From Verrucomicrobiota bacterium (lineage in GTDB: Bacteria > Verrucomicrobiota > Kiritimatiellia > CAIQIC01), in the NCBI GenBank assembly GCA_004321905.1, contig SCQF01000006.1:25410-89409 (forward strand): a DNA stretch of 64,000 bases, in the 5' to 3' direction. Under the pieces are notes generated by a model, which was given only the letters and a program-made list of their open reading frames with translations, made no database searches and was not told the DNA's origin. The position numbers and the translations under genes were made by a program. Each line of letters starts with the position of its first letter. The first letter of the stretch is position 1. This document shows positions 2,350 through 39,503 of this stretch, in pieces.

Positions 2350-3360
2350 TCACGCAAACTGGGCCAGAAAACGTACATCATTCTCGTAGAGATTACGAAT
2401 GTCGCCGATGCCGAACAGGATCATCGCAATGCGCTCGACGCCCATGCCGAAGGCGTAGCCCTGCCACTCATTGGCGTCAATGCCGACGTGCTCAAAGACC
2501 CGCGGATTGACCAGCCCCGCTCCGGAAATCTCAATCCAGCCGCTTTGCTTGCAAACGCGACAACCTTTGTCGCCGCAGACGTGACACGAGAAATCATATT
2601 CCACGCTCGGCTCCGTGAACGGGAAAAAATGCGGGCGGAAGCGCACCTTGACGTCCGGCCCCATCATCTGCTTGGCGAAATAACTGACGTCGCCCTTGAG
2701 GTCGGCCAGCGAAACCTTGCGATCCACATACAGCCCTTCGACTTGATGGAAGCTGGCGCTGTGCGTCGCATCGGTCGTGTCGCGGCGATAGCAGCGACCG
2801 GGCGCGATGATGCGGATTGGCGGCTTTTGCGCGAGCATCGTTCGCACCTGCACCGGCGAGGTGTGCGTCCGTAAAATCGTGTTTTCCTTGAGATAAAACG
2901 TATCGGTCGGCGCGCGCGAAGGATGATCCTCCGGCGTATTCAGCGCCGTAAAATTGTTGAACACCGTCTCGATGTCCGGCCCGGACGCGACCGTGAAACC
3001 CATCGAGCGGAAAATCGCCGTCGCGCGTTCGATGACCTGCGTAATCGGATGCAGCGAGCCAAGCCCACGCCAGCGACCGGGCAAGGTGACATCGAAGGCG
3101 GAGGCGGAGGTACGCACCGCGGCGGACTCGAACGCAGCCTTGCGCGCATCGAGCGCGGCGGTGACTTCGTTTTTAAGCTCGTTGGCAAGCCGGCCCGCCT
3201 CGCGGCGCGCTTCGGGCGCGAGTGCGCCGAGGCTCTTCATGATCGCCGGCAACTGGCCGCTGCGACCCAGCCATTTGATACGGACGGCTTCCAGCGCCGC
3301 GGCATCGGCCGCGCTTTGCACGTCGTTCAACGCCTGTTTTTTTTGTTCGGCAATGTTCAT
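2350..3360 (-). CDS. pheS: phenylalanine--tRNA ligase alpha subunit
   Basis: 336 aa. Class II aaRS motifs (FRPHFFPFTEPS, GAGLVNPRV, GFAFGMGVERIAM). Confidence 0.9.
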   Translation of the reverse strand: MNIAEQKKQALNDVQSAADAAALEAVRIKWLGRSGQLPAIMKSLGALAPEARREAGRLANELKNEVTAALDARKAAFESAAVRTSASAFDVTLPGRWRGLGSLHPITQVIERATAIFRSMGFTVASGPDIETVFNNFTALNTPEDHPSRAPTDTFYLKENTILRTHTSPVQVRTMLAQKPPIRIIAPGRCYRRDTTDATHSASFHQVEGLYVDRKVSLADLKGDVSYFAKQMMGPDVKVRFRPHFFPFTEPSVEYDFSCHVCGDKGCRVCKQSGWIEISGAGLVNPRVFEHVGIDANEWQGYAFGMGVERIAMILFGIGDIRNLYENDVRFLAQFA

Positions 3361-12542: not shown

Positions 12543-13409
12543 TCAACGCACCGGTGCATCAGCCGGCGGAGCGTAATCAGCCGGATAGCCGCCGTGGACT
12601 TTCGCGTATTCGGCCATCGCGGCGGGCAGCAGTTTTTGCAGCGCCTCGTAGCGCGCTTTGTCGGACGGATGATCGGAGAAAAACGCGTTGAAACCACCGC
12701 CGATGGCGTCGCCATGATTCCCGTTCTGTTGCATGGCGCGCTGCCAGATGCGCGGTGCGGCGCGCGGATCGTAGCCGGCTTTGGCCATATACATCAGCCC
12801 GACGGCGTCGGCCTGCGCCTCATCCTTGCGCGAATAGGCCGGCAGCAGCAAGGCACCGCTGACGGTAAAGCCGGCTGCGAGGACTTGCGCCCAATCCTGT
12901 TGATCCTTTGCTTCCAACACCGCCACGCCAATTTCGGCAATGACCACGACCGGCGTCACGACGCTCATTCGCCGCGTGGTGTGACGACAGTTGACATGCG
13001 CGAGTTCGTGCCCCATGACAGCGGCCAGTTCATCTTCATCGCGCACGAGGCCTTTCTTCCGATCATAGAGGCCCTCGAAAACCATCATCGGCCCACCGGG
13101 AAACGCGGCGGCGTTGACGATGTTGGTGTGGAAGAGCGTCACGCTGTAGGGCAAATTGGGATAGTGGGTGACCGCGCCTAATCTCCGGATGATTCCGTTC
13201 AGTTGCGCCGTTTTTTCAGGGTCGGCATTGAGACGCACGTGCTGCTTCTGCATTTGTTTGACGTTCGCAGCCATGCCTTGTGTGCCGATTTTGATATCGT
13301 CATCAAGGGTATAAATGTTGTAGGCCGACTTGCCCGTCACCGGATCCGTCGCACAGCCGGTCAAACTGACGAGTACCAGCAGTAAAATGTATTGAAGTAA
13401 TCTCTTCAC
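12543..13409 (-). CDS. M48 family zinc metallopeptidase lipoprotein
   Basis: Signal peptide with lipobox (LVSLTGC) and HExxH (GHELAHV). Confidence 0.7.
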   Translation of the reverse strand: MKRLLQYILLLVLVSLTGCATDPVTGKSAYNIYTLDDDIKIGTQGMAANVKQMQKQHVRLNADPEKTAQLNGIIRRLGAVTHYPNLPYSVTLFHTNIVNAAAFPGGPMMVFEGLYDRKKGLVRDEDELAAVMGHELAHVNCRHTTRRMSVVTPVVVIAEIGVAVLEAKDQQDWAQVLAAGFTVSGALLLPAYSRKDEAQADAVGLMYMAKAGYDPRAAPRIWQRAMQQNGNHGDAIGGGFNAFFSDHPSDKARYEALQKLLPAAMAEYAKVHGGYPADYAPPADAPVR

Positions 13410-14860
13410 GGTACGGACTTGAAGACCAAATCCATATTTTTCGCGGCGGCAACTTCGTCGAGGCGCCCGACCGGCGTGGTCACCGGCGCGTGATGCAAAG
13501 CGTCAGGATCACGTTTGGCAAGCTCCAGCACTTCGCTGACGGACCGCGCAAAACCGTCGAGCGTCTCGCGGCTCTCGCTCTCGGTCGGCTCGACCATGAA
13601 CGCTTCGGAGACGTTGAGCGGGAAGTAGATCGTCGGTGGATGAATGCCGCGGTCAATCAGCGCCTTGGCCAAGTCCAAGGTGTGGACGCCGTGTGCCTTG
13701 AGCGGCTCGCCGGAGAACACGCACTCGTGCATACACCGCCCCGGCGCGACGGCCTTCAGCCATGGCCGCAGCTTTTCCTGGAGATAATTGGCGTTAAGCA
13801 CCGCAGCGTCGCTGGTCTCGCGCAAGCCCTCCCGTCCGAGCATGAGCAGATAGGCATAGGCGCGAATGATGATGCCAAAATTACCGTAGAACGGCGCAAT
13901 GTAACCGATGCTCCTGGGTTCGTCGTAGTTCAGAGAAAAGGTGCCATCGGAACGTTTGACGATGCGCGAAACCGGCAGGAAAGGGCGCAATTTTTCGACC
14001 ACGCCGACCGGCCCGGAGCCGGGCCCACCACCGCCATGCGGTGTGGAAAAACTTTTGTGTAAATTGAGTTGGCAAAGATCAAAGCCGATCTTACCGGGTT
14101 TCACGCGTCCGAGGATCGCGTTGAGATTCGCGCCGTCGTAATACATCAGCCCATCCACGCCATGGATGATTTCGGCAATTTCCTTGAGATGATCCACGAA
14201 CAGGCCGAGCGTCGAGGGACAAGTCAGCATCAGGCCGGCGGTTTCCGCATTCACCGCCTTGCGGAGCGCATCCAAGTGCATATTGCCCTGCGCGTCGGAG
14301 GGCACGGTGCATACGTCATAGCCGGCAATCGCGGCGCTCGCCGGGTTGGTGCCGTGGGCCGAATCGGGGATCAGAATATGCGTTTTCTTATTGCCCCGAT
14401 CGCGGTGATAGGCCGCCATAATCATGCAGCCGGTCAGCTCGCCATGCGCGCCGGCGAGCGGCTGGAGCGTGAACTCCGCCATGCCGCAAATCTCGACCAA
14501 CAGACGTTCGGTTTCGTAAAGCAGTTGCAGCGCGCCCTGCGTCAACAGACCGCCGTGCCGAAGCTGCGGCCAGAGCGGATGCAGGCCGGCGAGGCCCGGC
14601 AGCGCGGCGGCAGTTTCGCACGCCTTCGGATTATATTTCATCGTGCAGGAACCGAGCGGATAGAAATGCGTATCCACCGAAAAATTGCGGCGGCTGAGCG
14701 CTGTGTAATGCCGTACGACATCCAGCTCGCTCAACTCCGGCAGTTCCGCAGCTTGCGCACGGAGCAGTTGCCGGTTGATGCGCGGTTGGGCGTCGTCGCG
14801 CCGCGTCGGCAATTGCACCGCCCGCCGACCCGCCACGCTTTTTTCATAAATCAATTGCAT
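13406..14860 (-). CDS. gcvPB: glycine dehydrogenase (decarboxylating) subunit 2
   Basis: PLP-dependent P-protein C-terminal half (...NLHKSFSTPHGGGGPG...). Start probably MQLIYEK. Confidence 0.85.
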   Translation of the reverse strand: MQLIYEKSVAGRRAVQLPTRRDDAQPRINRQLLRAQAAELPELSELDVVRHYTALSRRNFSVDTHFYPLGSCTMKYNPKACETAAALPGLAGLHPLWPQLRHGGLLTQGALQLLYETERLLVEICGMAEFTLQPLAGAHGELTGCMIMAAYHRDRGNKKTHILIPDSAHGTNPASAAIAGYDVCTVPSDAQGNMHLDALRKAVNAETAGLMLTCPSTLGLFVDHLKEIAEIIHGVDGLMYYDGANLNAILGRVKPGKIGFDLCQLNLHKSFSTPHGGGGPGSGPVGVVEKLRPFLPVSRIVKRSDGTFSLNYDEPRSIGYIAPFYGNFGIIIRAYAYLLMLGREGLRETSDAAVLNANYLQEKLRPWLKAVAPGRCMHECVFSGEPLKAHGVHTLDLAKALIDRGIHPPTIYFPLNVSEAFMVEPTESESRETLDGFARSVSEVLELAKRDPDALHHAPVTTPVGRLDEVAAAKNMDLVFKSVP

Positions 14861-14903
14861 GTTCACCTCAAATTTTTGAACAAAAGTTAACAAAGAAACA
14901 AAG

Positions 14904-15290
14904 TTATGCTTGGTTGGCTCCCGGAAGTATCAGGCGGTTCAAACCCGCAGTAAGCATCGGCTCATGAAAGTTAATCAGTAAACCCAAGGGGACATCCATC
15001 ATTTTCATATAACTCAACACAACGGCTTTATGCACCGGCAAGATCGTCTCTACCGCCTTGAGCTCCACCAAAATATCCAACCGTAGCGCCTCCTCGAAAA
15101 CGCAGCCCTTGTATTCCAACGGAACTACAACTTGCTTTTCCGTAGGAATCTTCTGGAGTTCCAATTCTCGCAACAGACACTTCTCGTAGACGCTCTCCAA
15201 CAATCCGGGACCTACCGTTTTATGCACTTCGATGGCCGCACCAATTACCGCATGGCTCCATTGATCGGCCTTTTGGAACTTCGAATGCAT
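14904..15290 (-). CDS. GxxExxY family protein (PD-(D/E)xK-like)
   Basis: 128 aa with HAVIGAAIEVHKTVGPGLLESVYEKCL, the GxxExxY signature. Local GC is about 48% against about 63% in the flanks. Confidence 0.7.
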   Translation of the reverse strand: MHSKFQKADQWSHAVIGAAIEVHKTVGPGLLESVYEKCLLRELELQKIPTEKQVVVPLEYKGCVFEEALRLDILVELKAVETILPVHKAVVLSYMKMMDVPLGLLINFHEPMLTAGLNRLILPGANQA

Positions 15291-15324
15291 CTCTTCTTCG
15301 TTCCTTCGTTACCTTCTGTTCCAA

Positions 15325-16665
15325 TCAGAGCGTATTTTCCAGTTTTGCCGCGAGGATATCCACTTCGGCCTTGGTGCGCTGCTCGGTGCAGGCCACTAGC
15401 AGCACGTTCTGCATACCGGCATAATAGCGGCCCACCGGAAATCCGGCGGCAATGCCCTGATCAATCAGCGCGCTGACGACTTCGGCGGCGTCGCGCGACA
15501 ACGCGAGCGCGAACTCATTGAAGAAATAACGGCCCGGAAAAGCCGGATGCACGCCGGGAATGTTATGCAGCCGCTCATAGGCGTAGGCGGCGCGCACCGC
15601 ACACTGGCGCGCCGCTTCGACAAAACCTTGCTTACCCATCAGCGCCAGATAAATCGTCGCCCGCAAGGCGCACAGCGACTCGTTCGTACAAATGTTACTC
15701 ATCGCCTTCTCGCGGCGGATGTGCTGCTCGCGCGCTTGGAGCGTGAGCACAAAGCCGCGCCGCCCCTGCGCGTCGTGCGTCGCGCCGACGATCCGGCCCG
15801 GCATTTTGCGCACGTGGGCCTTGCGCGTGGCCATAAAGCCGAGATAAGGCCCGCCGAACGAGAGCGGCAGGCCGAGGCTCTGGCCTTCGCCGGTGACCAC
15901 GTCCGCACCCATCACGCCCGGCGTCTTGACAATGCCGAGCGACATTGGATAGACGGAAAACACCGCCAGCGCGCCGACGCCGTGTGCGGCTTCCACCAGA
16001 TCGGTCAAGTCATCAAGACAGCCGAAGAAATTCGGATTTTGTACCAGCACCGCCGCAATAGATTTATCGAGCTTCTGTCGAAATGTGGCGCGGTCAGCCA
16101 AACCGTCAGCCAGCGGAATTTCCTCATAGGCAATGGAGAGGTTGCGGGTGTAGCAACGCAACATCGTGCGGTAGATTGGATTGACGCCTTCATCCACCAG
16201 CACCTTGTTGCGACCCGTGATGCGCAGCGCCATCATCAACCCCTCGAACAGCGCCGTGCCGCCGTCATAGAGCGACGCGTTCGCCGCCTCCATATCGGTC
16301 AGCCGCGCAATAGCGGTCTGGAACTCATAGATTGACTGCAAGGTGCCCTGCGACGCCTCCGGCTGATACGGCGTGTAGGCCGTGAAAAATTCGCCGCGGC
16401 TCGTGAGCGCGTCCACCGCCGACGGGATGAAATGGTCATAGAAACCGCCGCCGCAAAAATTGGTCAGCGTAGAATTCTTTGCCGCCAACGCGCGCAACGT
16501 TTGGAGCATTTCCAACTCCGAACGGCCCTCCGGCACGTTGAAATCTGCGGTCTGATATTCCACCGGCACGTCGGCAAATAATTCATCGAAGCCCCTGGCT
16601 CCGATCCCCGCCAACATGGCCTGCTGCTCTTCACGACCTGAACCCAAAAACGTAGTATGTGACAT
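15325..16665 (-). CDS. gcvPA: glycine dehydrogenase (decarboxylating) subunit 1
   Basis: P-protein N-terminal half. Likely start MSHTTFLGSG; the upstream residues of the track ORF run into the repeat element at 16724. Confidence 0.85.
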   Translation of the reverse strand: MSHTTFLGSGREEQQAMLAGIGARGFDELFADVPVEYQTADFNVPEGRSELEMLQTLRALAAKNSTLTNFCGGGFYDHFIPSAVDALTSRGEFFTAYTPYQPEASQGTLQSIYEFQTAIARLTDMEAANASLYDGGTALFEGLMMALRITGRNKVLVDEGVNPIYRTMLRCYTRNLSIAYEEIPLADGLADRATFRQKLDKSIAAVLVQNPNFFGCLDDLTDLVEAAHGVGALAVFSVYPMSLGIVKTPGVMGADVVTGEGQSLGLPLSFGGPYLGFMATRKAHVRKMPGRIVGATHDAQGRRGFVLTLQAREQHIRREKAMSNICTNESLCALRATIYLALMGKQGFVEAARQCAVRAAYAYERLHNIPGVHPAFPGRYFFNEFALALSRDAAEVVSALIDQGIAAGFPVGRYYAGMQNVLLVACTEQRTKAEVDILAAKLENTL

Positions 16666-16723
16666 GGTGTGCTCCCGCGCAACGCGGCGGAAGTTTACAC
16701 CACGCCCTCCTAAAAATCGAACA

Positions 16724-39176: not shown

Positions 39177-39503
39177 TTAGTTCGCCGTACCATGAGTAGT
39201 GCAGGACGGCTTCTCACCCAAGGTCCATGGCCCGTTATAACTGCCGCCCCCCTTACACACCGGCGTTTCCTTGATATAGGGGCCCACCAAGTCCGAGAGT
39301 TGGGTGGGCGCAGCGTTGGAATGATCCAATGCGTACTGATCCTTCGCCCCGTCAATCAGGCGCAAGTTATTGAAGCACGAATTCTTCATGGAGTTGGAGC
39401 GCGCGTTCATGAACGACGGCACCGCGATCGCCGCGAGCAATCCGATGATCGCCACGACAATCATGATTTCTACCAGGGTGAACCCCTTTTTCTGCTTTTT
39501 CAT
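39177..39503 (-). CDS. prepilin-type N-terminal cleavage/methylation domain protein (type IV pilin / T2SS pseudopilin-like)
   Basis: MKKQKKGFTLVEIMIVVAIIGLLAAIAVP is a class III signal peptide with the G/FTLVE motif. Confidence 0.65.
   Translation of the reverse strand: MKKQKKGFTLVEIMIVVAIIGLLAAIAVPSFMNARSNSMKNSCFNNLRLIDGAKDQYALDHSNAAPTQLSDLVGPYIKETPVCKGGGSYNGPWTLGEKPSCTTHGTAN

Follow-up and report, generated by a model that had tools for sequence, protein, structure and literature searches.

ORF-bearing intervening sequences (IVSs) of 23S rRNA are known in Coxiella burnetii and Leptospira (PMC4990558). The Coxiella IVS measures 428-444 nt and is closed by a helix of 28 bp formed by its terminal inverted repeats; two or three tandem GACAGAT heptamers stand just before the start codon of an ORF of ∼125 amino acids, and RNase III removes the IVS, cutting within the helix (PMC4990558). 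Another very small element with inverted repeats is found in phages, the 439 bp mycobacteriophage mobile elements MPME1/2 (PMC3029335). The protein family termed GxxExxY (TIGR04256), or PDDEXK_3 (PF13366), is listed with unknown function (PMC3424549). In the literature searched, neither a dedicated study of this family nor a biochemical report on nuclease activity of its members was found, and no description of the cassette architecture presented here was found in the literature that names the family.

The locus analysed lies in a 64,000-nucleotide stretch of contig SCQF01000006.1 of a Verrucomicrobiota bacterium, termed the window. A GxxExxY ORF separates gcvPA and gcvPB on the same strand, as the original prediction had stated; both HMM families and the gene calls bear this out. 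The two host genes are normally adjacent, which also holds: the spacer is empty, with a gap of 0-60 nt, at ∼70 loci from many phyla. The features of the locus are as follows.

13406..14860, minus strand: gcvPB, the downstream host gene (NF003346, E=2e-205)
14876..15323, minus strand: whole cassette of 448 nt, from terminus TGGAACAGAAG to terminus CTTTTGTTCAA (terminal-motif pairing scan, pattern search, sequence)
14876..14903, minus strand: 3′ inverted-repeat arm CTTTGTTTCTTTGTTAACTTTTGTTCAA, which starts at the base right after the TAA stop codon
14904..15290, minus strand: GxxExxY / PDDEXK_3 ORF of 128 amino acids, ATG to TAA, a predicted minimal PD-(D/E)xK nuclease
15057..15077, minus strand: putative catalytic D...ExK segment, D72-I-L-V-E76-L-K78, with a deletion junction (alignments A1/A2, DNA comparison, spacing census)
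15296..15323, minus strand: 5′ inverted-repeat arm TG-GAACAGAAG-GTAACGAAG-GAACGAAG, made of tandem 8-9-nt units (pattern search)
15325..16668, minus strand: gcvPA, the upstream host gene (NF001696, E=5e-178)

The ORF matches Pfam PF13366 with E=1.1e-32 and 113 bits (cut-off 22) and NCBIfam TIGR04256 with E=1.3e-33 and 116 bits (cut-off 35). The family motif is present in the window protein as G29-LL-E32-SV-Y35; in alignment A2 the G and E are invariant and the Y is at least 90% conserved. GC content is 0.488 in the ORF, 0.603-0.606 in gcvPA and gcvPB and 0.593 over the whole window. The original prediction of a low-GC insert is thus correct for the ORF, and its value of about 63% for the flanks is slightly high, the actual figure being ∼60%. 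GC at the three codon positions is 0.57/0.30/0.60 in the ORF and 0.62/0.45/0.74 in gcvPA. Further GxxExxY copies, for which a search had been proposed with the original prediction, were sought by tblastn, and the gene is present as a single copy in the 64 kb.

The ORF region is the second-lowest 300-nt GC island of the window, with a minimum of 0.43. The lowest island, with a minimum of 0.40, is a small gene at 39177..39503 (minus strand) with a prepilin-type N-terminal methylation motif (MKKQKKGFTLVEIMIVVAIIGLLAAIA...). Low-GC islands at 39.2-40.0 kb and 27.4-28.2 kb were considered as cassettes and rejected; judged from translations only, they hold prepilin-like and xseB-like genes.

Inverted repeats of 26-28 nt enclose the ORF and abut its start and stop codons, a feature that the original prediction did not include. 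The arms are built from tandem 8-9-nt units (AACGAAGG), and the termini read T(T/G)GAACAGAAG...CTTYTGTTCAA. The gcvPA stop codon (TGA, 15327-15325) precedes the cassette by 1 nt, and the gcvPB ATG (14860) follows it by 15 nt, with the gcvPB ribosome-binding site GAGGTG positioned 6 nt past the cassette end; an M48 peptidase gene comes next after gcvPB with a 4-nt overlap. Removal of the cassette leaves a spacer of 16 nt that includes the gcvPB ribosome-binding site, and empty sites of relatives measure 18-29 nt. The 5′ arm ends 5 nt ahead of the cassette ATG, and the purine-rich AAGAG between them is a probable Shine-Dalgarno region. A pattern search across the window, in which chance would give 0.00 matches, found the arm pattern here alone and no further arm copies.

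Of 26 positions, 25 pair between the two arms, and five of these pairs are G-U on the sense strand; in the minimum-free-energy fold of the sense RNA the arm stem closes the whole ORF (z=-3.3). Over four loci of the gcv lineage the arm mismatches amount to 10 G-U and 0 A-C, representing about four independent events, and this G-U excess is suggestive only. Family-wide there is no excess of sense-strand G-U over A-C in arm mismatches (161 vs 186), and selection on the RNA helix therefore gains no demonstration.

The 448-nt unit contains no partner ORF, and PDDEXK_3 is the sole domain found in the cassette; a recognised transposase or integrase (DDE, Y1, serine or other) was not found. A sigma-70-like promoter was sought for the cassette and not found. 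The arms have no Rfam match, either in the window region (E<=10) or in 12 related loci at gathering thresholds. With respect to target-site duplication, no direct repeat was seen outside the termini in the window, in the three same-type relatives described below or in units of the Bacteroidetes type, judged from the occupied sites themselves.

Of the known designs, the ORF-bearing 23S rRNA IVS is the closest to the gcv cassette. The sizes are similar (428-444 vs 448 nt), as are the enclosing helix and the arms (∼28 bp vs 26-28 nt), and both have a single ORF of ∼125 amino acids in sense to the host transcript. Tandem repeats of 7-9 nt, variable in number between strains, are found between terminus and start codon in the IVS and in GxxExxY cassettes alike; in the gcv cassette, GTAACGAAG-GAACGAAG ahead of the ATG would be the counterpart of the Coxiella GACAGAT repeats. 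Both are distributed sporadically, and both show ORF decay in some lineages. They differ in host site, which is helix 25 or 45 of 23S rRNA for the IVS and the gcvPA-gcvPB mRNA spacer for the cassette, and in the ORF, which encodes a four-helix-bundle S23p protein (PF05635) in the IVS but a PD-(D/E)xK protein, with PDDEXK_3 as its sole Pfam match, in the cassette. RNase III excision has been shown for the IVS, whereas for the GxxExxY cassette it is inferred.

Other small elements share part of this design. MPMEs are likewise ultra-small (∼440 bp) with short inverted repeats, are variably present between near-identical genomes and reportedly carry one ORF of ∼123 codons. They are unrelated to the cassette in sequence, with no PHROGs match, and their copies are identical, evidently active and phage-borne, whereas GxxExxY cassettes are diverged and reside in chromosomes, each fixed at a site of its own. 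MITEs of the Correia/NEMIS type and REP/REPIN sequences are also small inverted-repeat elements co-transcribed with their neighbours, and the ORF-less mini-cassettes described below resemble MITEs; the terminal repeats of Correia elements are said to form RNase III substrates. Correia and REP elements are non-coding and mobilised in trans by a known transposase class, in contrast to the full cassette with its own small nuclease gene. The cassette has the terminal inverted repeats and ORF-less derivatives of transposons and MITEs, but it does not have a recognised transposase. Homing endonuclease genes, free-standing or intron-borne, including the PD-(D/E)xK enzyme I-Ssp6803I, are comparable as small nuclease genes placed between or within conserved genes, and the occupied, decayed and empty states of the gcv site fit a homing cycle. 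They do not have flanking inverted repeats of tandem units, unlike GxxExxY cassettes. Compared with Cas4/RecB-like nucleases, the GxxExxY protein is half the size and without Fe-S cluster cysteines, extra domains or a CRISPR context.

At least three diverged cassette lineages, and one decayed copy, occur in the gcvPA|gcvPB spacer among relatives. The following states are found, with identities given relative to the window.

L001-L003: gcvPB 87-92%, gcvPA 90%; the window's cassette type
L183/L184: gcvPB 88%; cassette protein 63-69% identical to the window/L001-L003 type
L185: gcvPB 79%; cassette of a third type (67% identical)
L186 and L182, the two closest relatives: gcvPB 94% and 90%; no cassette, a spacer of 117-121 nt
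L005: gcvPB 70%; a GxxExxY gene from another subfamily, internally deleted but still with arms of its own, CACGAAGGACACGAAG / CTTCGTGCCCTTCGTG

The L001-L003 cassettes encode proteins 81-84% identical to the window protein and are colinear with the window at ∼80% nucleotide identity. For L183, the host gcvPB is 88-94% identical, and the cassette 63-69%. In L004 and L006 the spacer is empty. Thus occupied, empty and decayed alleles of the gcv spacer all occur among relatives; within the group of close relatives, cassettes have entered the spacer, been lost and been replaced by cassettes of other lineages. A mobile or homing element behaves in this way, and a fixed host gene does not. Uniform presence in relatives at native GC, which the original prediction had set against mobility, is not what is observed: the two closest relatives do not have the gene, and a relative at 88% has a cassette of a different lineage.

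In L186 and L182 the spacer is filled by a REP-like palindrome doublet, TTTCCAAGGNTTGGAAAA. The same palindrome is abundant in the window as an 18-nt sequence, TTTCCAAGSCTTGGAAAA, with 73 occurrences on both strands (0.1 expected) at ∼37 sites, for example 3360/3392, 7008/7040, 7406/7438, 10764/10796, 12519, 16724, 39047/39079 and 51125/51157. The palindromes are mostly intergenic and frequently form doublets 32 nt apart; one copy is just 5′ of gcvPA and another just 3′ of the M48 peptidase gene. In this verrucomicrobial lineage the palindrome is either a REP-like repeat or a regulatory site. The gcvPA|gcvPB spacer of a Smithellaceae MAG (L050:5785-6001) holds an unrelated 216-nt element with a near-perfect helix of ∼28 bp (GTCATTCCCGCGCAGGCGGGAATCCAG...; -80.6 kcal/mol), so a different MITE-like insert occupies the spacer there. 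A 126-nt spacer with a hairpin is found in a member of Pirellulales (L009).

We favour, with moderate confidence, the reading that a 448-nt inverted-repeat cassette, selfish and IVS-like, sits in the gcv spacer with the ORF as its single gene and is an old resident in decay. The original prediction had instead suggested recent acquisition, that is, horizontal transfer from a low-GC donor with amelioration incomplete. The contrast between the ORF at 48.8% GC and its flanks agrees with that suggestion, as does the lack of the gene in the nearest relatives by gcvPB (94% and 90%). However, the same-site cassettes of L001-L003 are equally low in GC (0.48-0.50 vs 0.62-0.69), synonymous sites between same-type orthologs are saturated (pS 0.43-0.78), and dN/dS is 0.02-0.09. 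Throughout the family, moreover, 73 of 76 cassettes have an ORF whose GC is below that of the flanks, with a mean deficit of 7.5 points, and ORF GC tracks host GC over a range of 26%-57% (r=0.91). About half of the GC deficit comes from GC2, i.e., from amino-acid composition. Given the low GC of the same-site orthologs and the family-wide offset, low GC is no evidence for recent transfer. Recent acquisition is therefore improbable, though transfer from an unsampled donor within the clade retains a small probability.

The family was surveyed in 80 metagenomic loci carrying relatives 45-63% identical, which gave 79 usable cassettes. Duplex formation between the flanks of each ORF (70 nt upstream, 90 nt downstream) was assessed against shuffled controls. 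The flanks of one and the same ORF form a duplex with z<-3 in 46 of the 79 cassettes, and the median energy is -41.5 kcal/mol. The inverted-repeat cassette design is accordingly displayed by ∼60% of these family members, from several phyla. The arms lie 0-10 nt from the start and stop codons and consist of two to four 7-9-nt units in tandem. Among the unit types are CACATAG, CACGAAG, CACTAAG, CACAGAG and CATTAAG, with termini such as TTGAACC...GGTTCAA. The units vary between lineages but always agree between the arms of one cassette. Full units span 448-546 nt. ORF-less units of 77-105 nt with the same termini are found next to full units or within arrays, and tandem arrays differ in copy number between strains.

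The settings of these cassettes are also of a kind. Where both neighbours are visible, 27 of 31 cassettes share the strand of the upstream gene, and 24 of 31 are in sense between co-directional genes. The contexts include fumC|sdhC, hemE|hemN, hemA|hemC, etfB|etfA and the two halves of a split metH, in agreement with the original prediction that the family turns up inside conserved operons of many phyla. One cassette (L141:1831-6154) is placed exactly between the halves of a split methionine synthase, the homocysteine-binding domain on one side and the pterin/B12/activation domains on the other; another (L160:1910-4221) is exactly between etfB and etfA. As with gcvPA|gcvPB, both sites are junctions between partners of one enzyme. 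The selfish-cassette behaviour that had been predicted is likewise seen, in discrete inverted-repeat ends, patchy same-site presence in close relatives, decayed copies and ORF-less derivatives.

The family comprises 16,030 clusters at 50% identity. It is found in none of 50,697 phage genomes, and a scan of IMG/VR with the family alignment gave no confirmed relative. Among plasmids it is present in 7 of 72,556 records, all non-mobilizable and mostly megaplasmids. With this near-absence from phages and plasmids, no transfer vehicle is evident. Near-identical copies at different loci were not seen; two exact proteins, P0110 and P0115, were sought across many contigs as signs of recent transposition, and each has one context. 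A scan of all loci for other small ORFs flanked by inverted repeats was swamped by spurious GC-rich ORFs.

One locus, L151, has two GxxExxY genes, at 2980-3357 (+) and 901-1278 in coordinates of the reverse-complemented locus. The two are diverged, with 44-46% identity to the query, and their arms are of the CGCAGAGGGCGCCGAGG type and the CAATGAGACAATGAGAC type, respectively; from this difference, the within-genome paralogs appear old and individually distinct.

The protein is under strong purifying selection: its ORF is as constrained as gcvPA and gcvPB, which have a dN/dS of 0.06-0.10. Strong and long purifying selection on single fixed copies would be unusual for a purely selfish gene, and for this reason a domesticated cis-acting role remains a serious rival. 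By this rival, the protein and stem form an operon module that is no longer mobile and does a local cis-acting job for the host, candidate jobs being to process or insulate the polycistronic mRNA or to set the ratio of upstream to downstream product. Such a module would explain a dN/dS as tight as that of the host genes over saturated synonymous divergence, the single conserved context of each exact protein, the preference for sense orientation between linked genes (including gcvPA/PB, etfB/A and split metH) and an arm complementarity that is maintained, with G-U-only decay in the gcv lineage. It is less easily reconciled with the absence of the cassette from the two closest relatives (L186, L182) and ∼70 other genomes, with the decayed copies (L005, a truncated copy in L155 and the window deletion), with the replacement of one cassette lineage by another at one site, and with the lack of a family-wide sense-strand wobble bias. 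On balance, we regard domestication as unlikely, though more probable than recent acquisition.

A predicted structure was obtained for the intact same-site ortholog P0002 (pLDDT 95.6). The model has the order helix-helix-strand-strand-strand-helix-strand, with D72 on beta2 and E82 and K84 on beta3, and it points to a minimal Cas4-like PD-(D/E)xK nuclease fold for the GxxExxY protein. A PDB sequence search gave no match. The AlphaFold model of the window copy (pLDDT 48, shallow alignment) is uninformative on the folding of the shortened hairpin.

The window copy is a clear member of the family by sequence, but six residues are missing from its otherwise invariant D-x9-ExK hairpin. The loss is an 18-nt in-frame deletion between TGGTGGA direct repeats, which has the form of a classic slippage product. 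With it, the beta2-beta3 hairpin loses its tip and, within this, a nearly invariant Cys. D72, E76 and K78 are kept, yet the deletion changes the spacing to D-x3-ExK, which is found in the window copy only; all other members checked, including same-site P0002-P0004, have D-x9-ExK. As three hairpin rungs are lost, the register of D relative to E and K could in principle survive. Nevertheless, loss of activity in the window copy is likely.

The predicted fold, close to that of Cas4 and restriction enzymes, might also suggest a stand-alone defence or toxin gene, an abortive-infection nuclease or toxin-antitoxin component that sits in the operon by chance. PADLOC and PHROGs, the defence and phage protein models, gave 0 matches each; there is no partner gene and no defence island, and neither the housekeeping-operon setting nor the arms tight on both ends of the ORF fits such a gene. 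This explanation is highly improbable.

For the favoured selfish, IVS-like cassette, a mode of residence can be proposed. The cassette would be promoterless and co-transcribed with the operon, and the purine-rich end of the 5′ arm would direct its translation. Read-through expression, part of the original prediction, is plausible, as 27 of 31 cassettes share the upstream gene's strand and the search for a sigma-70-like promoter was negative. Pairing of the arms in the transcript would form a helix of ∼26 bp and loop the cassette out, which would bring the gcvPA stop codon and the gcvPB ribosome-binding site to within ∼20 nt of each other. By the precedent of the Coxiella IVS, we infer that the 26 bp helix in the gcv transcript may be an RNase III substrate, or may at least loop the insert out. 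At the DNA level the nuclease might aid spread or retention, through cleavage of empty sites (homing) or through action on the repeat ends. The window copy is probably old and vertically inherited and has begun to decay, as the shortened catalytic hairpin and the arm mismatches in the form of G-U suggest.

A broader and more tentative hypothesis, which we hold to be possible but doubtful, is that GxxExxY cassettes and ORF-bearing 23S rRNA IVSs are two cargo versions of one ancient element class. Members of this class would be units of ∼450 nt with inverted-repeat ends of tandem units that colonise transcribed DNA, be it operon spacers or rRNA helices. Harm to the host would be avoided through pairing of the arms in the transcript, with the insert looped or cut out. 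The PD-(D/E)xK protein would then be the missing mobility or homing enzyme. A more radical version would make it an RNA-level excision or maturase-like factor, and such a role would account for purifying selection on each fixed copy. The origin of rRNA intervening sequences has been open since 1990; the hypothesis, if true, would give this question a testable answer and would define a very large class of bacterial mobile elements (16,030 protein clusters) without description in the literature searched.

With these findings the GxxExxY family becomes a concrete experimental target, as the cargo of a discrete inverted-repeat cassette built like rRNA intervening sequences, placed in sense in housekeeping operons of several phyla, and with one spacer taken in turn by different lineages. 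In annotation, the unit should be given as arm, ORF and arm (∼450-550 nt), together with mini-cassettes of 77-105 nt, and the low GC of such an insert must not be taken as recent horizontal transfer. In the window, the gcv operon would be interrupted by an old, probably decaying selfish element and not by a newly acquired gene.

Several arrangements beyond the single cassette were observed. In L155:2630-3500 the order is hairpin (3′ arm-loop-5′ arm), truncated ORF, hairpin, full ORF, hairpin and host gene, and similar cassette arrays are found in L152, L150 and L096. The junction hairpins resemble the attC sites of integron cassettes superficially. An integron reading of the L155 junctions was rejected: there is no integrase or attI context, and single cassettes have half-sites at both ends.

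A number of proteins, P0249, P0251, P0260 and P0264-P0266 among them, are 260-295 amino acids long and have two GxxExxY domains each; these are presumably fusions of tandem cassettes. In Luteolibacter (L164-L173; for example L170:4411-5828) the cassette is part of a MoxR - GxxExxY - DUF58 operon. It is followed downstream by a 186-nt unit that holds an ORF-less mini-cassette of 87-92 nt and is present in one to ∼8 tandem copies, depending on the strain. The last mini-cassette has the DUF58 start codon in its loop, and its 3′ arm therefore encodes the N-terminus of DUF58.
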